DNA from: a virus | Lineage: Duplodnaviria > Caudoviricetes | DNA: 64,000 nt | Strand: one strand, 5' to 3' | Virus record (IMG/VR): IMGVR_UViG_3300032244_000155 | Coordinates: 5,306-69,305 of that record | In this document: in pieces, positions 25,183 to 34,546 of the stretch | Layout: every line of letters begins with the position of its first letter | How positions within the stretch are numbered: the first letter of the stretch is position 1 | The notes under the pieces: model-generated | What the model saw: the letters and a program-made list of their open reading frames with translations, nothing else | Told to the model about the DNA's origin: nothing | The model's database searches: none | Translations under genes and position numbers: made by a program

Positions 25183-26406
25183 TTAACTCTGTGGGAATTG
25201 GTCGGTACCCTGAGGAACCTGCGGAGCAGGAGCAACTTCGACCTTAGCATCAATTTTGCTATACAGGTCAAGGAATGCAGTCTTGGACTCTGCATCAAAG
25301 CGGTTCACGCAATACTTGATCGCCTCGAGTTTATCACCGAAGATAGTGTACGCTTCTGCGATATGCACCAGACGGCGAGTGGAAATCAATTCATCAATTG
25401 CACCCTCTTCGAAGGTCTTGCGAATGATATCAGCCCACTTGACTAGGTTGTCTGCAAACTCTTTGTCTGCGATACCAAGACTATCAAACACTTTCACTAG
25501 AATGCGAGTCTCGACCTTAGTGTCTGCATACTCTTGCTCAACGGTGATTGGGAACCGCTCTAGGAATGCATCATCAAGAATCGTCGCTGCCATGTAGCGA
25601 CCAGTTTCATCACCTTTACCTTTTGTGTTGGCAGTGGCGATCACATTGAAACCAGCAACTGGTTCGACAAATTCACCAGTCTTTTTAACGAAGATACCTT
25701 TACCTTCAAGGACTGCTTGCAGACACATCAGTTTGTTGGAACCACGATCAATTTCATCAAGGATGAGAATCGCACCAGACTTCATAGCCTGCAGGACAGG
25801 ACCATCAAACCAGCGAGTCTCGCCGTCAATCAAACGGAAGCCACCGATCAGATCATCTTCATCGGTCTCTGGAGAAATGTTCACTCGCAAGCATTCGGTC
25901 CGAGTAGCAGCACAAGCCTGTTCGACCATCAATGTCTTACCGTTACCAGACAAGCCAGAAACGAAGACTGGATAGAACCGCTTCGAAGAAACAATTTTCT
26001 TCATATGGTCAAAGAACCCGAACGGAACGAACAGTGGATTCACTTTAGGCACAATTGCGCCGTCTTGAATCCGAGCGACGGTAGAAATTTTAACTGGTGC
26101 TTTTTGAGCCACTGGCATCACCGCTGGTGCATGTGGTTCATATACAACCACGGATTCTGGGACTGAAACAACTTTAGGAGCTGACATCGGCACAACGTTG
26201 GAGATACCAGCAAGGCTTACACCGTACTCCTCAAGCGGAAGACGGTAGGTGCCGCGATCGACCCGATACTCGTCGGATTTAACCCAATTATTACGAGCCC
26301 AGCCTTCTTCGGCCATGGACACTAACTGCTGTCGGGTTACAACAGCACCGAAACGGCGAGCAGCTTCAGTAAGAAAAGCAACCTTGTCGTTTTTCGAAAT
26401 GGTCAT
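25183..26406 (-). CDS. MoxR/CobS-like AAA+ ATPase
   Basis: GLSGNGKT, ILDEIDRG, ATAN, LDDAFLERF, ISTRRL. Confidence 0.9.
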   Translation of the reverse strand: MTISKNDKVAFLTEAARRFGAVVTRQQLVSMAEEGWARNNWVKSDEYRVDRGTYRLPLEEYGVSLAGISNVVPMSAPKVVSVPESVVVYEPHAPAVMPVAQKAPVKISTVARIQDGAIVPKVNPLFVPFGFFDHMKKIVSSKRFYPVFVSGLSGNGKTLMVEQACAATRTECLRVNISPETDEDDLIGGFRLIDGETRWFDGPVLQAMKSGAILILDEIDRGSNKLMCLQAVLEGKGIFVKKTGEFVEPVAGFNVIATANTKGKGDETGRYMAATILDDAFLERFPITVEQEYADTKVETRILVKVFDSLGIADKEFADNLVKWADIIRKTFEEGAIDELISTRRLVHIAEAYTIFGDKLEAIKYCVNRFDAESKTAFLDLYSKIDAKVEVAPAPQVPQGTDQFPQS

Positions 26407-26451
26407 GATATAGAAACCTCAAAAAAATCAGAAAAATCAATCAACACAATC

Positions 26452-26480
26452 AGTCTACTCTGGTTTGGGTAGGCTGTCAA
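26452..26480 (-). promoter_or_regulatory. Early sigma70 promoter
   Basis: TTGACA-17 bp-TAGACT; the -35 contains the upstream TGA stop. Confidence 0.75.
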
Positions 26481-28666
26481 GCAATTTCCTCGATTACCTT
26501 GGAAAGCAACACTCGGTTGGTCAAGCGCCCACGGTTCATAGCCAGGAACGCTGTCTTGAGTTTGCGAGCAGAGACCGCACCTTCACCGAGAATATCTTCC
26601 AATGAATCATCATCCGTATTCAAATCACTTCCGCCAGGAATTAAAAAGTATTGATCATATCCGTAATTCGAAACTTGATAAAACTTTTGTGTACGGAACA
26701 CTTTCAATTCGGTATCAATTTTGAAAGAAGGGATTCCAAAACGTTGGGCTGCACTACTAAAAACACTCTTACTCTTACCGAGAATGTAGAACCCAATCAA
26801 ATTACATCCAGTCTTTTCTTTAAGAATCTGGAGTAATGTAGGAGTAACACCAGCAACTCCAACTTTGTAATTCTTTTTAGTGTCCTCATCTTGAATGTAT
26901 GACGATTCATATCGAGTTGGTGCTCCAATTCGCTCTATCGTTTCACCTGGAGCAATTGCAGTATAAAGTGTACTGGAATCTTCACCGTCAGTAATAAACG
27001 AAACGTTTACGATTTCGGTACGGGTACGCTTGCGAAAATCATTAATAACCGACGGAGCAACTTTAATTGTAGAATTTAAAGGAGTGCCTCCTAATCGCAT
27101 ATCATGGCTAATATGGACATAGTGATATCGCCGACTATATGAATAAGTTCGACTATTCGTTGGATTGTAGCACCGAGCATAATTCAATAGGTCATTCGCG
27201 AATTTGCGATATGAAGCATTCTTCATACTGCTTGAAAGAATATTCAGAAGACTAAAGTTATCGTAAAAACCTAATTCGCCTGGAATTTCAGAATGACGAT
27301 CTTCTTGCGACTCATGGATATACTGAGTGGTAAATGCATAAACATCAAAAGGAATATTCACTTTACGGCAAAATGTCGTAAGGGTAAGCAATTGCTCAAT
27401 TGTTCCTTCAATGTTATCTGTCATTGAACCAGACCAATCTACGAAAATTACAATCCCGTGATTCTTACCAGCTGCAACAGAACCAATCTTGCGGAAGATA
27501 TCGTCATTGAATTTGTAGGTATGCAGTTTGTTAGTATCTAACTTACCGCTATCTGCAACTGTAATGCGACGATTCTCTGTTGCTTTTTTACGCATTTCAA
27601 ATTCTTTTACAAGATAATTGATTGCATTTTTATTGCGCTGCTCAAAAGCATTCAGAAGAGTATTGTCGTAACCATCATTGTCGGTATAATAGTCTTCATT
27701 AAAGAATTTATTCTGCAATTCTTTCCAATGCACAATGTAATTCTTTGCTTGGAACTTAGTTTGACTTGGAAGAACACCAATAGCAATTTTGCGATCTTCG
27801 ACCAATTGACTTAAAGACTTAGCTAGGCTTTCATCTGTAAGAGACTTTACTGTTCCACGATAATCCGACAATTCTTCATCATCAGAATTATTATATGATT
27901 CATTGGAGAATCCACTACTTGAATTTTCACCGTCAGTTTCTGGATCAAAATCTTCTGGATTCTGATTCTCTAAATCACCCAATTCATCTGAGTAATTATC
28001 AAAATCATCTTCATCAAACCCACCAAAATCTTCCTCTTCATCAATGTCACCGCGTTGGCGCTGAGCCTCAGCATTTTGTTCAGCTTCTTTTTTGCGCTGC
28101 TCTAATTCACCTTTGCAATAATCGTAAAGGCGAGTGGCAATGCCTTTCACTTCATCAAAAGTCTGTGCATTCTCAATTTCTTGAACAAATGCATTCTCTT
28201 CTGCATTATTGAATCGAACGTTAGCGAAAGCGCCAATCTTGAAATGCAAATTGATTCGATCAATCAGCAATAGTTTGTTTACGTCTTTGCCTTTAATCTC
28301 GAAAAAATCACGCTCGACAAATTGGCGATAACCAATTGCAAACGATTTGCGCAGACCGGGATAACGATCTTTAATCATCCGTTCAATTCGGGCATCTTCA
28401 ACAACGTTTAAGAATGTACCGAATTCTGCACCACCAGCCTTATGGCATTCAATGTACTCAACTGGTGTATCTAATGCATGACCAATCTCATGGCCGTAAA
28501 GCAATTCTTGAATTTCTGGAGTAATGTCTTGCCACATTGGCAATGTGATCTTACGGTTTTTAAGATCAAACGAAGCAGTCGGAACCTTGCGGTGCTCTAC
28601 AATCAGATTCTCTGTTGCAAGCAATCGAACTAAGGTGGACTTGGTAAATTGTACGTTCTCAGTCAT
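26477..28666 (-). CDS. HExxH metallopeptidase-like plus VWA (MIDAS) protein, CobT-like partner of the AAA+ ATPase
   Basis: HEIGH, NVVEDARIE, FVDWSGSM, GGTPL, ITDGE; start moved to MTENVQ (28666). Confidence 0.85.
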   Translation of the reverse strand: MTENVQFTKSTLVRLLATENLIVEHRKVPTASFDLKNRKITLPMWQDITPEIQELLYGHEIGHALDTPVEYIECHKAGGAEFGTFLNVVEDARIERMIKDRYPGLRKSFAIGYRQFVERDFFEIKGKDVNKLLLIDRINLHFKIGAFANVRFNNAEENAFVQEIENAQTFDEVKGIATRLYDYCKGELEQRKKEAEQNAEAQRQRGDIDEEEDFGGFDEDDFDNYSDELGDLENQNPEDFDPETDGENSSSGFSNESYNNSDDEELSDYRGTVKSLTDESLAKSLSQLVEDRKIAIGVLPSQTKFQAKNYIVHWKELQNKFFNEDYYTDNDGYDNTLLNAFEQRNKNAINYLVKEFEMRKKATENRRITVADSGKLDTNKLHTYKFNDDIFRKIGSVAAGKNHGIVIFVDWSGSMTDNIEGTIEQLLTLTTFCRKVNIPFDVYAFTTQYIHESQEDRHSEIPGELGFYDNFSLLNILSSSMKNASYRKFANDLLNYARCYNPTNSRTYSYSRRYHYVHISHDMRLGGTPLNSTIKVAPSVINDFRKRTRTEIVNVSFITDGEDSSTLYTAIAPGETIERIGAPTRYESSYIQDEDTKKNYKVGVAGVTPTLLQILKEKTGCNLIGFYILGKSKSVFSSAAQRFGIPSFKIDTELKVFRTQKFYQVSNYGYDQYFLIPGGSDLNTDDDSLEDILGEGAVSARKLKTAFLAMNRGRLTNRVLLSKVIEEIA

Positions 28667-28689
28667 ATGAATTTCTCCCTTACCCACCT

Positions 28690-28718
28690 ATAGTAGCAAA
28701 CCACCAACGCGCTGTCAA
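28690..28718 (-). promoter_or_regulatory. Early sigma70 promoter
   Basis: TTGACA-17 bp-TACTAT; the -35 contains the upstream TGA stop. Confidence 0.8.
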
Positions 28719-29320
28719 GCAGCAACTGCTTCTTCCTCAACCTGTTGTGGCTGGACAACAGAGAGAATTTTTGGACGGCTGATCACCGTCTGAGGAGCAC
28801 CACGATACTCGCGATGGCTTTTCACAGTCGCAACCACTTGAGCCGTCTGACCCTTCGAAGGGAACTCAGCAGTGCCGGTATAAACTACAGCGTTACCGTT
28901 CTCATCCTCACAGATACGAAGGAGGGACATTCCCGAATCGCACCAGTGATAGCGAGTCCGCTCAACTTCAATTTCTGCCTTGACAGTCAAGGTCATGGTT
29001 ACTTTTTTACCTGGCTGACCGACGTGGGTCATAGTAGCAATCTTAGCAACACGTTCAGCTTCGAACTTTGCTTTACGCTCTGCTTGGGTTGCAATAGAAT
29101 TGCGAAGGGCGAGCACCTGCTTTTCGGTCAGCTTGCCATACTTGTCAAGAGCGGTCAACAGACTTTGATAGAACGGACTCTTGTTGGCGTTAGCCCACAG
29201 GAAGTCGAACATCTCCTGCGAGTCGGGATAGGTACGATTGAACGTGGTCCGAGCATTCATTACGATGTTACGCTTGATGCCAGCCTCATACGCGGACGGG
29301 TTGTGAATCTGTGAATGCAT
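28715..29320 (-). CDS. Early protein with probable C-terminal OB-fold
   Basis: Start moved to MHSQIH (29320); LDKYGKLTEKQV then HVGQPGKK..TVKSHREYRGAPQTVISRP. Confidence 0.65.
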   Translation of the reverse strand: MHSQIHNPSAYEAGIKRNIVMNARTTFNRTYPDSQEMFDFLWANANKSPFYQSLLTALDKYGKLTEKQVLALRNSIATQAERKAKFEAERVAKIATMTHVGQPGKKVTMTLTVKAEIEVERTRYHWCDSGMSLLRICEDENGNAVVYTGTAEFPSKGQTAQVVATVKSHREYRGAPQTVISRPKILSVVQPQQVEEEAVAA

Positions 29321-29357
29321 TTTCGAACTCCCTTGTTTCTGTCTCACCACAAGATCA

Positions 29358-29385
29358 ATTCTACTCTGATCACCACGAAAGTCAA
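29358..29385 (-). promoter_or_regulatory. Early sigma70 promoter
   Basis: TTGACT-16 bp-TAGAAT; homologous to 13117-13144. Confidence 0.75.
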
Positions 29386-29395
29386 GGACTTTCTC

Positions 29396-29438
29396 GGTGT
29401 TGTACAAAAACAACACCATGATGTTGTTTTTTTGCTAC
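29396..29438. promoter_or_regulatory. Operator-like palindromes GTTGT-N6-ACAAC
   Basis: ggtgttgt-acaaaa-acaacacc (29396-29417) and imperfect gttgt-tttttt-gctac (29423-29438). Confidence 0.55.
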
Positions 29439-30133
29439 TTTATTGCAATAAATGCTGTGAATCCGTGATTTTGCCAGAATGTATCCATGCGTTTAAAGTC
29501 AAATCCAGCACCAGCACAAATACTAATTAATTCATTTCGAGTATTCAATTTCATCATATGTCGCAATTCTCTCTCTTTATTTAGAATGTCATCTGATGTA
29601 AAATGCTCTCTTTTGTAATCGTAATAGGTAAATGTGCGAATGTCTTGGATCTTTGAGCATTCGGAAATAGTTTTCTCTGCAAAAATAAATGCACCACCAT
29701 GGCGTAATCCATTGTAAATTTGTTTTACAATATCTCGTCTTTGATTTTCTGGAATGAATTGCAAAGTGAAAATAGAAGTAATCAATGTCGAATCTTCAAA
29801 TTTAAAATCGCGAACATCACCACGATGATATTTCAAATGAAATCCAGATTCAGCATATAGTTCTTCATCTTTGTCGAAGCCTGAAAAGAAATCTTCTTCA
29901 ATTTCAATTCCAAAGTATTTTGCATTTGGTGCAAATGCAATGTTCTGTTCATGCATTGCTTTAAGTAGTTTACCAGTAGAGCAACCAACATCAACAACCG
30001 ATGCATCATTCTCTACGAAATACTCTGAATATTTCAATACGTCATTCCAAAGATTTGTGTATCCGCGAATAGAATGTTCAATGTGTGCATCGAAGCCTTC
30101 TTCTCTTTGTGCGAATGTAAATTTTTGTGCCAT
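29435..30133 (-). CDS. cmoA: CmoA-like carboxy-S-adenosylmethionine synthase
   Basis: FDAHIEHSIRGY, VDVGCSTG, GDVRD, FTLQF, IYNGL..GGAFIFAEK, FWQ..F..IAIK match the E. coli CmoA pattern (SVPGY, DLGCSLG, NFTLQF, GGALVLSEK, WFQ). Confidence 0.82.
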   Translation of the reverse strand: MAQKFTFAQREEGFDAHIEHSIRGYTNLWNDVLKYSEYFVENDASVVDVGCSTGKLLKAMHEQNIAFAPNAKYFGIEIEEDFFSGFDKDEELYAESGFHLKYHRGDVRDFKFEDSTLITSIFTLQFIPENQRRDIVKQIYNGLRHGGAFIFAEKTISECSKIQDIRTFTYYDYKREHFTSDDILNKERELRHMMKLNTRNELISICAGAGFDFKRMDTFWQNHGFTAFIAIK

Positions 30134-30134
30134 T

Positions 30135-31370
30135 TTATAATTCCTTGTACGGTTTCAATATTTTCTCATATACATTGGACGCAAGTGCAGCCATCATCTT
30201 GGGCGCAACCATTCTACCAATTCGTTCAGCCTTTTTATCGAAGTTACCAGTAAGAATAAAATCGTCAGGCATACCCATTATAATCTTTAATTCTTTGATT
30301 GTAAACTTCCGATTCTTTTCATAGTGGAAAACACCAGACACAGACTTCTGATTACCACGTTGTGTGATCGTTGGAGATGGTAAATCTGGGCATGGTCGAA
30401 TCATGTTAAATAATGATCGTTTAGGATTGATAGAGATAAACTCTTTGTCACTAGGTTTCATATGTCTTGACGGATTGAATGGAAGCATCTCAATCCATTT
30501 CTTTTGAAACCCATTCTGAACATAATCATACAATTCTTTTTCTTCTTCAGGATCATTCACTACATTACCAATTGCTGATTTTAGACTAATGTGCTTAGGA
30601 GTAGTCTTATCTGGACAAGTCATAGTATTGATGTTTAGAAAATTGATTCCAACTTTTTCTGCAACATCAGATCGAACACAAACAAAAAACAAACGTTCTC
30701 TAGTTTGTGGAACACCATAGTCTGCAGCACTCAATACATGATATGTTGTAACATATCCAGGTTCAATATTTTCAAATGCGTTTTTAAACTCAATTAACTT
30801 CTTTGCAGCTTCACCCATTGTGATGCCTTTCACGTTCTCTGCAATAATAACTTTTGGCTTAATCTCTTTTGCAATTCGAATGTACTCAAAAAACAAGTCT
30901 TCAATTGCTTCCACAACTTTACCATCAGAATAAACTTTGACACCAGAACTTACTGTAGACTCAGTAACATGTACAACTTCATCTGATTCAAAATCGAAAT
31001 AGCTTTCTGCAAAATGTTTCTCCGAACCTTTCCAATTCTTTTCACGCTTACCAGCAACAGAGAATGCAGAGCATGGAGGCGAACCATCAAGAATATCCAA
31101 TTCACCAGGTTCTAAATTTGCAACCTCGAGAAATGTTTTACCAGTCAATGTTTTAATGTCACCAGGAATAATCTTTGTGTCTGGAAAATTCATCGAATAA
31201 GTTTTAATTGCTTCTTCAACGAATTCATTGATTGCAATCACTTTACCGCCAGCCAATCGATATCCAGTCGAACTTCCACCACCACCAGCAAAGGTGCTAA
31301 CTACCGTAAATAAATTTCTATCTGATGATGCTTTTACATCAGCAATCGTATAGTGTTCGTATTTCGCCAT
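30135..31370 (-). CDS. DNA cytosine-C5 methyltransferase family protein, candidate carboxymethyltransferase
   Basis: Motif I FAGGGG, IV GSPPCSAFS, VI ENV, VIII QTRERLF, X altered to IGRMVAP; start moved to MAKYEH. Confidence 0.9.
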   Translation of the reverse strand: MAKYEHYTIADVKASSDRNLFTVVSTFAGGGGSSTGYRLAGGKVIAINEFVEEAIKTYSMNFPDTKIIPGDIKTLTGKTFLEVANLEPGELDILDGSPPCSAFSVAGKREKNWKGSEKHFAESYFDFESDEVVHVTESTVSSGVKVYSDGKVVEAIEDLFFEYIRIAKEIKPKVIIAENVKGITMGEAAKKLIEFKNAFENIEPGYVTTYHVLSAADYGVPQTRERLFFVCVRSDVAEKVGINFLNINTMTCPDKTTPKHISLKSAIGNVVNDPEEEKELYDYVQNGFQKKWIEMLPFNPSRHMKPSDKEFISINPKRSLFNMIRPCPDLPSPTITQRGNQKSVSGVFHYEKNRKFTIKELKIIMGMPDDFILTGNFDKKAERIGRMVAPKMMAALASNVYEKILKPYKEL

Positions 31371-32154
31371 AATTTTTCCAGTCCCTATAAACGTCAAGCA
31401 TACGCTTGCGGTTTTTAATATTGATATCTTTACATTCTAACAGAACTTCGAATGCTTTGTCAATCCCAGCACCAAGCTGAAGATTGATATGCGGTTTCGG
31501 TCTTCCTATTTTTTGGAACTCCGGAAACGCTTCTATAACATGATGTTTCTGGTAAGGTTTATTTAGCTGATACCAATCGTACTGCATGAAAAAATCTTTA
31601 ATGGTACTATCTAAGTAAGGCGCAATGAAATCTTTTTTATATTTTAAACAAAGGTATTTTTGTTGCATGTAACCAACGGGATTGCTACTGCCGAAGTATT
31701 CGGCACGAAACTGATCAAATAATTCTTTTGGTTCTTTGTAATGAATACATGCTTTCTTTGAAACTCCGTAGTGACCGTCTGCTGCCCAGCCAGAGATAAC
31801 TTCTTTCTCTTCTATTTTTGGATAGACGTACAAGAATGGAAACGTACACTCATAATGTGTTTTCTTAATGCAAGCAAACTTAGTTCTTAAAGTATGAAAG
31901 TCTTCAATTAAATTATTAATTGGAACTTCAACTTTAGTGCATCTCCAACCCATTATGTTTGATGCATCAATAGCTTTCTCAGAATCATATGTTGGATTGT
32001 TTTCTAAACAAAATGTGTATGCATGAACTTTTTTACCAAGTCTATGTGCAGTAAATGCTACAGATAAAGAATCAACTCCGCCAGAGAGTAGAACAGCAAC
32101 TTCATTCTCTCTGGAAGAATCTTTTATTTTATTCTCTAGTAGTTTATCAATCAT
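31339..32154 (-). CDS. Asparagine synthetase-like ATP-dependent amidoligase (synthetase domain only)
   Basis: PP-loop LLSGGVDS, SGWAADGHYG (cf. SGEGADE.FGGY), APYLD (cf. PFLD); no Ntn glutaminase domain. Confidence 0.8.
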   Translation of the reverse strand: MIDKLLENKIKDSSRENEVAVLLSGGVDSLSVAFTAHRLGKKVHAYTFCLENNPTYDSEKAIDASNIMGWRCTKVEVPINNLIEDFHTLRTKFACIKKTHYECTFPFLYVYPKIEEKEVISGWAADGHYGVSKKACIHYKEPKELFDQFRAEYFGSSNPVGYMQQKYLCLKYKKDFIAPYLDSTIKDFFMQYDWYQLNKPYQKHHVIEAFPEFQKIGRPKPHINLQLGAGIDKAFEVLLECKDINIKNRKRMLDVYRDWKNYGEIRTLYDC

Positions 32155-32596
32155 GAAGCAATCTTACTGAAATAATGCAACGCATAAGAAATTCTAATCC
32201 AGACTGATCGCGATAGTCTTCAGCATAAAAGACTTCTTTAATACCAGAAGCATATATCATTTTAGCACAGTCCATACATGGCGCACAAGTGACAAACATT
32301 GTAGCACCTTCACCAGATTCATTGGATCTCGCAAGTTTACCAATTGCATTTAATTCTGCATGAAGAACTTCTGGTTTAGTTTTTAAAGTCTTAATTGGAA
32401 TTCTATCAGAAAAATAATCAACAACTTCATCTTCGCAATTGTTATCCCAACCAGCAGGCATACCATTGTATCCAATAGAAATAATTCTATCATCTTTTAC
32501 AATGATTGCTCCAACTTTTCTTCTTCTTGCACTACTCAACTCTGCAAAGAGTTTTGCAGTTTTCATGTACGAACCAAGATACTTTTCTTTAATCAT
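32147..32596 (-). CDS. cd: dCMP deaminase
   Basis: GYNG, HAELNAI, PCMDC zinc ligands; start moved to MIKEKY. Confidence 0.93.
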   Translation of the reverse strand: MIKEKYLGSYMKTAKLFAELSSARRRKVGAIIVKDDRIISIGYNGMPAGWDNNCEDEVVDYFSDRIPIKTLKTKPEVLHAELNAIGKLARSNESGEGATMFVTCAPCMDCAKMIYASGIKEVFYAEDYRDQSGLEFLMRCIISVRLLHD

Positions 32597-32837
32597 CAAT
32601 AAACTCTTTTTGAAACAGGCGACGTTCTTGTATAGTTGGGATTTCAAATGTCTTTCTAGGATTAGCACACATAACGCATTTCGGATTTCCACAACTTATT
32701 GGAGATTGTTTTGCTAACTTATGTGGTTGCTTAACTGGAATAAGATGTTCTTTTGCAATTGCAACTTGTCGATTGATATGATTCTCTTTTTGTTGCAGTC
32801 TGCGGGAATGTTTGAATTTATCTTCTTCATTACTCAT
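32589..32837 (-). CDS. Conserved hypothetical protein with Cys cluster
   Basis: CGNPKCVMCANPR. Confidence 0.65.
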   Translation of the reverse strand: MSNEEDKFKHSRRLQQKENHINRQVAIAKEHLIPVKQPHKLAKQSPISCGNPKCVMCANPRKTFEIPTIQERRLFQKEFIDD

Positions 32838-34546
32838 TTTGTTATCCTCGAAAAATTGTTGACCTTTTCGAACTTTATTACGTTCATGAACTTATCTTGT
32901 AGCATGTCTCCTTTATGTGATATTACAAATAGATTAGAACCTTCAAGCATTCCAAGAATCTTCATCAAGTCTTCGGTTCCATTAGTATCTAGTGATGAAT
33001 CAAATATCTCATCAAGAATTAATATGTTTGTGCTTGCAGAATTTTTTAATTTAGCAACTGCTCGCCAAGTCAACATCAATGCCATATCAATTCTCTGTTT
33101 CTCACCTTCACTAAATGATGCATAAGTAAAATCATCACGATGCCTAGATTTGATTGTCTCTTTGAACGATTCGTCCAAATTGAAATTGACAAAGAAGTCT
33201 AATGATGCAAGATATTTGTTTACTAATTTATTAATGATTGGAATATATTGACGAATGATTTTCGTTTTGATTCCAGTATCTTTAAGTAAAGTAGTCGCAA
33301 CTTCATAGTATGCACGTTCTTCGGTGATCGATTTTATCTCCGTTTCAATTTGTAGTAGATTATCATTAAGCCCAGACAATTTCGTATTTTCAGTCTGTAA
33401 GTCACTTTTGTTTTCTTTTAGTCTTTCGATCTCCTTTTCCAACGATTTGCTATAACGCTGATTGACAATGATTTCGCTCTGCTCTGATGTTAGATATGAA
33501 TTTGTGTCTTGAATCTTTTCATCAATCAATTCAATTTCATCTTTACGATTTTTTAGAGTTTTGATTTCTTTATCAATTTCTGAGATAGCTTTTTCAACTT
33601 CCTTAAGTTTTTTGTTGCGCTCTTCTACAATATGTGTCTTATGGTCTTCCGCAATTCCTTGCTTGCATGTTGGACAGTCGCTATTGTCATGATAAAAATC
33701 AATATCTGTAGAAACTTTAGAAATAGTTTTTTGTAGATTACTCTTTATATCGGACAGCTTTACTAGTCTATCAGACACTTTCTTTTTGTCCGATATCTGC
33801 AAACGAAGATCAGACAATTCTGTTTCATATTCATTACATTTAACTTCGCTTTCGGTAATTAAATTAATTGTGTTTGCTAAGTCTTGTTCTTTTAGAGAAA
33901 CTTGTGTTGCAGTATTCTTTTTGATACTATCAATTAGTTGAATCTGATATTGAATTTGTTCTTTCTTCAAGTCTGATTGATACTTCGCTTGATGGTGTTG
34001 CTCTTTCAATAAAGCAAACTTATCTTTTAGAACTCCATTCATTCGCGAAAAGATTTGAATGTCCAACAAGTCTTCAATGATTGAACGCCTATCCGATGCA
34101 GACAATTGCATGAATGGAATAAACGAAGCAGATCCCAACAATACGATTTGAGTAAATGATTTGTAATTAAGTTTGAGAATAAACTTTTCCAAATACTCTT
34201 GATAGTCTTTTGCTGCAGCATCCTGATTGATCAACTCATCATTGCTATAAATTTCAAACACGTTAGGCTTGATACCACGAACTACTTTGAAAGATTTATT
34301 TCCAATATTGAATTCGATTTCAACCACGCAATCTTTTTGATTGATTGCGTTTACTAGCTGACCTTTGTTTATGTTTCGAAATGCTTTACCAAACAATACA
34401 AAACACAATGCATCAAGCATTGTAGACTTACCAGAACCATTAGCACCAACGATTAATGTTGTGCTATTGTCAAGTAAATTAATTTCTGTATTGAAGTTAC
34501 CAGTCGAAAGAAAGTTTTTAAATCTAAGTTTATTAAAAATAATCAT
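32834..34546 (-). CDS. 46: Recombination nuclease subunit gp46 (Rad50/SbcC-like)
   Basis: GANGSGKS, CPTC zinc hook, FSEGEK, ILDE. Confidence 0.96.
   Translation of the reverse strand: MIIFNKLRFKNFLSTGNFNTEINLLDNSTTLIVGANGSGKSTMLDALCFVLFGKAFRNINKGQLVNAINQKDCVVEIEFNIGNKSFKVVRGIKPNVFEIYSNDELINQDAAAKDYQEYLEKFILKLNYKSFTQIVLLGSASFIPFMQLSASDRRSIIEDLLDIQIFSRMNGVLKDKFALLKEQHHQAKYQSDLKKEQIQYQIQLIDSIKKNTATQVSLKEQDLANTINLITESEVKCNEYETELSDLRLQISDKKKVSDRLVKLSDIKSNLQKTISKVSTDIDFYHDNSDCPTCKQGIAEDHKTHIVEERNKKLKEVEKAISEIDKEIKTLKNRKDEIELIDEKIQDTNSYLTSEQSEIIVNQRYSKSLEKEIERLKENKSDLQTENTKLSGLNDNLLQIETEIKSITEERAYYEVATTLLKDTGIKTKIIRQYIPIINKLVNKYLASLDFFVNFNLDESFKETIKSRHRDDFTYASFSEGEKQRIDMALMLTWRAVAKLKNSASTNILILDEIFDSSLDTNGTEDLMKILGMLEGSNLFVISHKGDMLQDKFMNVIKFEKVNNFSRITK

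Follow-up and report, generated by a model that had tools for sequence, protein, structure and literature searches.

A string of four minus-strand genes was investigated in a 64-kb stretch of viral DNA (the window). The window spans bases 5306-69305 of a virus contig from IMG/VR, which is linear, 69.3 kb long and estimated to be 38% complete. In series, the genes encode a dCMP deaminase (cd), an AsnB-type synthetase domain (cmoY), a C5-cytosine methyltransferase homologue (cmoX) and a homologue of carboxy-S-adenosylmethionine (Cx-SAM) synthase (cmoA). The window encodes a T4-like phage gene set, including a gp46/gp47-type SbcCD nuclease, a gp55 late sigma factor, a UvsW-type helicase and cobS/cobT-like genes. 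An earlier note, made from the sequence alone, had described three abutting or overlapping genes (AsnB-like, C5-methyltransferase and CmoA) downstream of the deaminase, and the open reading frame (ORF) list, the Pfam and NCBIfam assignments and the gene junctions all agree with that description. Positions are those of the window.

32147-32692, minus strand: cd, dCMP deaminase, 181 aa (PF00383 dCMP_cyt_deam_1, E 9.8e-23)
31339-32154, minus strand: cmoY, lone AsnB-type synthetase domain, 271 aa (PF00733 Asn_synthase)
30135-31370, minus strand: cmoX, C5-cytosine methyltransferase homologue, 411 aa from the ATG (PF00145 DNA_methylase, E 8e-54)
29435-30133, minus strand: cmoA, carboxy-SAM synthase homologue, 232 aa (TIGR00740, E 2.9e-27, full length)

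cmoY, cmoX and cmoA lie directly downstream of cd. The overlap is 8 nt between cd and cmoY and 32 nt between cmoY and cmoX, and the gap from the cmoX stop to the cmoA start is 1 nt.

Relationship to the cytosine modification pathway of phage S-B43

On 7 December 2025 a pathway built from these three enzyme families was published for Synechococcus phage S-B43 (Yang et al., Nat Commun 17:281; PMC12783734). The S-B43 CmoA (SpCmoA) generates Cx-SAM from S-adenosylmethionine (SAM) and prephenate with a kcat of 2.33 per s and is tenfold faster than E. coli CmoA. SpCmoX writes 5-carboxymethylcytosine (5cxmC) at GC sites, and the wild-type enzyme accepts Cx-SAM only. SpCmoY acts on DNA, where with ATP it ligates glycine, which is needed, to the 5cxmC carboxylate, and S-B43 virion DNA carries the resulting glycine amide (PMC12783734). 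The earlier note had suspected that a related phage pathway might recently have been reported, and this is that report; the pathway cannot be counted as novel.

The three window proteins are full-length members of these families, each 45-50% identical to its S-B43 counterpart, and in both phages the genes are contiguous on one strand in a T4-like (Kyanoviridae-type) background. We put at about 0.88 the probability that the locus, in an uncultured freshwater T4-like phage, is a DNA hypermodification operon of the CmoY-CmoX-CmoA type. All the steps of its mechanism are inferred from homology, each having been demonstrated experimentally for the S-B43 homologues. CmoA would convert SAM and host prephenate to carboxy-SAM. 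CmoX, in which a motif X Arg replaces the usual Asn and would hold the cofactor carboxylate, would flip a cytosine out of duplex phage DNA; Cys100 would attack C6 and the carboxymethyl group would pass to C5, yielding 5cxmC. CmoY would then adenylate the 5cxmC carboxylate with ATP and couple an amine, most likely glycine, to give 5-glycylcarboxymethylcytosine, and DNA modified in this way would resist restriction. The first two of these reactions had been proposed before the S-B43 comparison was made, and they are supported by the full-length homology and by the diagnostic residues described below; the proposed protection from restriction is likewise supported by the S-B43 pathway (PMC12783734). 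The sites on which the assignments depend are listed here.

32068-32085, minus strand: PP-loop SGGVDS, CmoY residues 24-29, ATP pyrophosphatase motif (alignment)
31071-31073, minus strand: catalytic Cys codon of SPPC, Cys100 from the ATG or Cys109 from a TTG start, equivalent to SpCmoX Cys98 (HMMER alignment to 8YF3)
30968-31066, minus strand: loop following the catalytic Cys, expanded by ~20 residues over that of SpCmoX and located between motifs IV and VI (pairwise and multiple alignments)
30213-30215, minus strand: motif X Arg codon (GRMV), Arg386 from the ATG or Arg395 from the TTG, equivalent to SpCmoX Arg350 (HMMER alignment to 8YF3)
29561-29578, minus strand: CmoA K186-E187-R188-E189-L190-R191, set against E. 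coli K198-R199-S200-M-L-E203 (MAFFT alignment)

CmoA aligned with SpCmoA over its full length at 45% identity (E 2e-70) and matched the E. coli CmoA structure 4GEK at E 9e-20. In the bacterial CmoA/CmoB pathway, which leads to 5-oxyacetyluridine (cmo5U) in tRNA, E. coli CmoA (4GEK/4IWN) contacts its cofactor through Y39, D62, G64, S66, D89, D117, F137 and E164 (PMC3663124). All of these are kept in the window protein with the exception of D89, which is Glu. The fold, most of the cofactor contacts and the predicted reaction (SAM and prephenate to Cx-SAM) are thus common to both. The acceptor is different, being tRNA U34 in bacteria and, by prediction, DNA cytosine reached through a Dcm-type enzyme in the phage; the phage protein also shares only 27% identity with E. 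coli CmoA and, in MAFFT alignments, has Glu at the Arg199 column. As the earlier note had stated, no tRNA gene was found in the window, and a search for CmoB (PF08003) gave no match across the whole contig, so a tRNA role for this CmoA is disfavoured.

The cmoX reading frame extends upstream to a TTG at 31397 (30135-31397, 420 aa), and with this start the overlap with cmoY would be 59 nt. The ATG at 31370 is most likely the true start because it fits the N-terminus of SpCmoX and of other homologues. CmoX was 48% identical to SpCmoX over its full length (E 7e-120), and its best match among solved structures was 8YF3, SpCmoX with Cx-SAM (E 2.7e-102), followed by M.HaeIII and M.HhaI at ~1e-22 to 1e-19. 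Arg350 of SpCmoX, which stands where M.HhaI has Asn304, contacts the carboxymethyl group; the R350N mutant is inactive, and candidate CmoX enzymes have been defined by the SPPC motif together with Arg350 (PMC12783734). Both features are present in the window enzyme. Its SPPC aligns to S95-C98 of SpCmoX and is kept in all aligned homologues, and the motif X Arg occurs in every CmoA-linked transferase compared (as GRMV, or CRMV in one case). The ENV and QxRxR motifs, with the active-site Glu and the Arg contacting cytosine N4 and O2, were also aligned (AENVKG and PQTRER). A basic residue in place of the motif X Asn permits use of Cx-SAM in M.MpeI N374K too (as described in PMC12783734); that enzyme is engineered, carries Lys and is CpG-specific, whereas the window enzyme is natural, carries Arg and belongs to a family with a GpC-specific characterised member.

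The same residues bear on a different explanation, in which the transferase is an ordinary SAM-dependent 5-methylcytosine (5mC) enzyme and CmoA serves host tRNA cmo5U or depletes SAM as an anti-defence measure. SAM depletion by CmoA was raised by the S-B43 authors as a possible side effect (PMC12783734). Outside the CmoA-linked set, the cultured-phage protein nearest to CmoX is the methyltransferase of Methylophilales phage Melnitz (MZ577097; L003:4010-6194; 40% identical). It is presumably a 5mC enzyme, its gene overlapping that of a Tet/JBP-type 2-oxoglutarate oxygenase annotated as hypothetical only. However, motif X of the Melnitz enzyme has Leu in place of the Arg of CmoX or the Asn of ordinary C5 methyltransferases. 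The strict use of Cx-SAM by SpCmoX and the loss of activity in R350N also argue against a 5mC enzyme, as do the want of CmoB in the contig and the close linkage of CmoA, 1 nt from CmoX here and paired with it in 15 other loci. We consider a plain 5mC enzyme very improbable.

CmoY gave an E-value of 1.9e-8 and 34.8 bits against PF00733 (cut-off 21). The glutaminase domain is absent from the product, which at 271 aa has the same length as SpCmoY and is 50% identical to it over 266 aa (full length, E 3e-91). This value passes the sequence similarity network threshold (~1e-56) of the SpCmoY cluster, although it is a pairwise E-value and the comparison is approximate. The PP-loop motif is also present in SpCmoY, and SGG-DS is invariant in 12 of 12 aligned CmoY homologues. 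A PDB sequence search with CmoY gave no match at E <= 0.01. An AlphaFold2 model built on 12 homologues (pLDDT 74.5, pTM 0.79) found its best fold matches in beta-lactam synthetase, carbapenam synthetase and the synthetase domains of AsnB and human ASNS (TMq 0.60-0.69; structures include 1MC1, 1Q19 and 1CT9), all of which are carboxylate-adenylating enzymes that form amides or lactams. CmoY is therefore predicted, from its sequence and modelled fold, to be an ATP-dependent amide ligase acting on 5cxmC in DNA.

Amidation of the carboxymethyl base had also been suggested in the earlier note, and this part, including the possibility of an amine conjugate, holds through the homology with SpCmoY; the carbamoylmethyl product at +57 Da is not the expected one. 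The glutaminase-less type of ligase, as characterised in S-B43, adds glycine and not ammonia, so the expected final nucleoside is dC +115 Da (the glycine amide, 5gcxmdC, m/z 343.1). A companion idea held that the ligase uses ammonia released by the adjacent dCMP deaminase, producing 5-carbamoylmethylcytosine, or that it acts at the nucleotide level. The 8-nt overlap of cd and cmoY would suit such a coupling, as would a ligase lacking a glutaminase domain to supply ammonia, but the adjacency is not conserved: peptide deformylase takes the place of the deaminase in relatives of 66% identity, an unknown 384-aa gene precedes the ligase in the 53% group and CmoA does so in S-B43. Furthermore, cd is a standard T4-type nucleotide-metabolism gene, and SpCmoY works on DNA and needs glycine (PMC12783734). 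There is accordingly very little to recommend a deaminase-fed ligase.

Departures from the characterised enzymes

Several observations weigh against the assignment of the locus to a pathway like that of S-B43. CmoA scored 95.9 bits on TIGR00740, under the NCBIfam cut-off of 193.3. Its Glu187 falls, gap-free, on the column of E. coli Arg199 in MAFFT alignments. Compared with SpCmoX, the target-recognition region of CmoX carries two indels and the catalytic loop is longer. Of 79 positions invariant within the window CmoY's own lineage, nine are different in SpCmoY, among them His204-His205 (Gln-Ile in SpCmoY). Glycine is accordingly a likely, but not an established, amine for coupling by CmoY.

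The first two points carry little force against activity. Active SpCmoA is itself below the TIGR00740 cut-off (115.6 bits), as are two other phage CmoAs, so the cut-off appears to bound bacterial CmoA rather than activity. Arg199 of E. coli CmoA forms a salt bridge to the cofactor carboxylate (PMC3663124), and its replacement by Glu had been flagged in the earlier note as a caveat. The substitution was borne out in an alignment of the window CmoA with 11 other phage CmoAs and E. coli CmoA, and the hydrophobic register of the helix favours this placement, though one pairwise HMMER alignment to 4GEK sets Arg188 rather than Glu187 on Arg199. The segment K-E-[R/K]-x-L-R, in which Glu is followed by Arg or Lys at +1 and Arg at +4, is invariant in 12 of 12 phage CmoAs. 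As the active SpCmoA has this same segment, Glu at the Arg199 column is no argument against activity; judged from these alignments it appears to be a true feature of the phage CmoA clade. Arg191 could take over the Arg199 contact through an i/i+4 charge swap (R199/E203 in E. coli, E187/R191 in phage).

The departures in CmoX and CmoY concern specificity. The expanded CmoX loop is common to two relatives from the IMG/VR scan described below (L009 and L011) and is partly shared by three more (L019, L023 and L024), which marks it as a feature of the lineage and not as damage. By analogy with SpCmoX the target is probably GpC, an extrapolation in view of the longer loop and the target-recognition indels. 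GpC is over-represented in the window (observed/expected 1.22), with 22% of cytosines in GpC, a figure that is uninformative on the CmoX target.

For CmoY, an alternative that leaves the CmoA and CmoX chemistry unchanged is coupling of another amine (a different alpha-amino acid, ammonia or a polyamine), with a different final base. The nine divergent positions are compatible with this, in particular His204-His205, which adjoin the conserved Lys203. Against it stand the 50% identity to SpCmoY at an E-value far inside the network threshold of 1e-56 and the 70 of 79 invariant positions that SpCmoY shares; ammonia is additionally disfavoured by the missing glutaminase domain, a domain that has been linked to ammonia use in these ligases (PMC12783734). 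We regard another amine as rather unlikely. Within the preferred explanation of a CmoY-CmoX-CmoA operon, glycine is the best guess and takes the larger share of the weight, and another alpha-amino acid is possible. A lineage that departs from S-B43 more broadly, with a non-GpC CmoX target, a non-glycine CmoY amine or both, and hence a virion base not yet described, is a similarly outside prospect. This possible difference in motif or amine is where the remaining interest of the locus lies, and the variant CmoX loop and target-recognition region and the CmoY residues make it a candidate for sampling the diversity of both in the family.

Distribution and mobility of the three-gene cassette

The ligase was used to scan IMG/VR and neighbouring genes were placed by tblastn, which yielded 23 loci. 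In 15 of these, which fall into four divergence classes, CmoX lies directly downstream of CmoY, and CmoA comes next wherever the contig continues beyond CmoX, which bears out the co-occurrence of the three genes that the earlier note had put forward for survey. The loci are grouped below by CmoY identity to the window (A, X and Y denote cmoA, cmoX and cmoY).

96-99% identity, 4 loci (L005-L008): gp46, cd, Y, X, A, as in the window
66-68% identity, 5 loci (L009-L012, L027): gp46, peptide deformylase, Y, X, A, cobT; L027 stops inside Y
58-59% identity, 6 loci (L013-L018): ligase adjoins RNase H; no X or A in the flanks
50-55% identity, 8 loci (L019-L026): Y, X, A between polB with the unknown 384-aa gene and MazG/RecA, where flanks suffice; L020 stops after Y

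The Y-X-A cassette is therefore found at three places in the genome (behind gp46/cd, behind gp46/deformylase and behind polB), and the recurrence of one gene order at all three suggests that it moves and is kept as a unit. The dCMP deaminase is not a conserved partner: the 66%-identity relatives have peptide deformylase in its place, and in others it is missing.

The six ligases of 58-59% identity (e.g. L016:4046-4864) have a T4-type RNase H and a DUF6433 gene as neighbours; CmoX and CmoA are absent from the surrounding 4-5 kb and from the rest of these fragmentary contigs. CmoX was sought in the five records with an unlinked CmoY (L013, L015-L018) and no match was found; these records are 5-20% complete, so that X and A may be encoded in another part of the genome. 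Either this group has its module divided between genome regions or the ligase has another substrate.

Among cultured phages, transferase homologues above E 1e-40 were confined to the S-B43 group, S-CRM01 and Melnitz, the same phages that were matched by blastn/tblastn on phage records. When the four-gene stretch was compared by megablast with 50,697 phage records, no match was obtained. S-B43, a cultured cyanophage, resembles the window in the SPPC and carboxylate-binding Arg of CmoX, in a PP-loop ligase without a glutaminase domain and in a CmoA of the phage clade, marked by K-E-[RK]-x-L-R. Its gene order is A-Y-X, in contrast to Y-X-A in the uncultured freshwater phage, and its locus lies between primase-helicase/pyrophosphatase and glutaredoxin, whereas that of the window follows gp46/cd and precedes the cobT/cobS-like genes. 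The window CmoX loop and target-recognition indels and the nine CmoY residues are the further differences. The freshwater cyanomyovirus S-CRM01 (a Synechococcus phage, HQ615693) shares its habitat with the window phage, and there CmoA (47% identical) adjoins CmoX (46%, GRMV) on one strand in the order A-X. Unlike the window, S-CRM01 has no CmoY beside the pair, and its predicted end product is therefore plain 5cxmC, unless a ligase is encoded elsewhere.

The Melnitz pair of methyltransferase and oxygenase sits after polB and before MazG/RecA, the site occupied by the 53%-identity Y-X-A cassettes. On this evidence the Tet-linked and CmoA-linked cytosine-handle systems look interchangeable at one locus. 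In phage hypermodification systems of the kind to which the Melnitz pair belongs, which combine a C5-methyltransferase with a TET/JBP 5mC-dioxygenase, 5mC is converted to 5-hydroxymethylcytosine (Burke et al., PNAS 2021, PMC8256090), and the characterised TET-linked methyltransferases prefer GpC (PMC8256090), as does SpCmoX (PMC12783734). In both kinds of system a post-replicative C5-cytosine transferase sets a handle that further enzymes elaborate. The TET/JBP handle is methyl and then hydroxymethyl instead of carboxymethyl, no CmoA is involved, and elaboration is by glycosylation and other steps rather than by amide ligation.

Public sequencing runs containing the four-gene stretch carry freshwater or lake-water metagenome labels and derive from some ten studies. 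Contigs from four of these runs cover the entire stretch, and in X11 it lies within a single contig of 10.2 kb that shows 127 differences over 3,258 bases; such assembled contigs are evidence of presence only and are silent on base modification or expression. A complete three-gene version is thus present in an abundant uncultured freshwater T4-like lineage, found in lake metagenomes of several studies, and the cassette is mobile, at three genome positions in Y-X-A order in lineages related to the window and in A-Y-X order in S-B43. The published survey, for which IMG/VR was mined, counted 5,615 CmoX, 4,257 CmoA and 2,251 ligases (PMC12783734); IMG/VR identifiers of the near-identical contigs were not found in its supplementary files. 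With the pathway, a crystal structure and a large survey already published, the locus is a further example and carries little weight as a discovery. That the chemistry derived by the earlier reader from raw sequence alone matched the published pathway may serve as a calibration point.

Neighbouring features of the window

Two features follow cmoA.

29406-29431, minus strand: A/T-rich inverted repeat of 10 bp with loop TCATGG, beginning 3 nt past the cmoA stop
29385-29358, minus strand: promoter-like TTGACT-16-TAGAAT, after the inverted repeat

Together they form a probable 3' limit of the gene string, as read from the sequence. In a promoter and terminator scan of 28.5-33.2 kb counts were no higher than in shuffles, and for this reason no promoter was assigned to the operon.

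An ORF of 234 aa (28715-29419; phrog_27218, with a weak OB_YrrC match) lies between cmoA and the cobT-like gene. The inverted repeat overlaps its ATG at 29419, and the true start is probably later, since the promoter-like site follows that repeat. The ORF is kept in L007 at 94% and is absent from the 66%-identity relatives, in which cobT directly follows cmoA; it is outside the module. Just downstream (25183-28687) are a CobS-like AAA ATPase (PF07728/CbbQ_C; phrog_249) and a 736-aa CobT-like protein (phrog_459), a pair typical of aquatic T4-like phages.

On the other side of the string, the gp46-type nuclease subunit (32834-34546) finds its best matches among cultured phages in Stenotrophomonas phage DLP6, cyanophage S-CAM3 and Melnitz, at only ~49% identity, a level which indicates a T4-like lineage without a close cultured relative. 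The most depleted 4-base palindromes in the window were GGCC (observed/expected 0.44), AGCT (0.65) and CCGG (0.66), and GCGC was not depleted (1.04).

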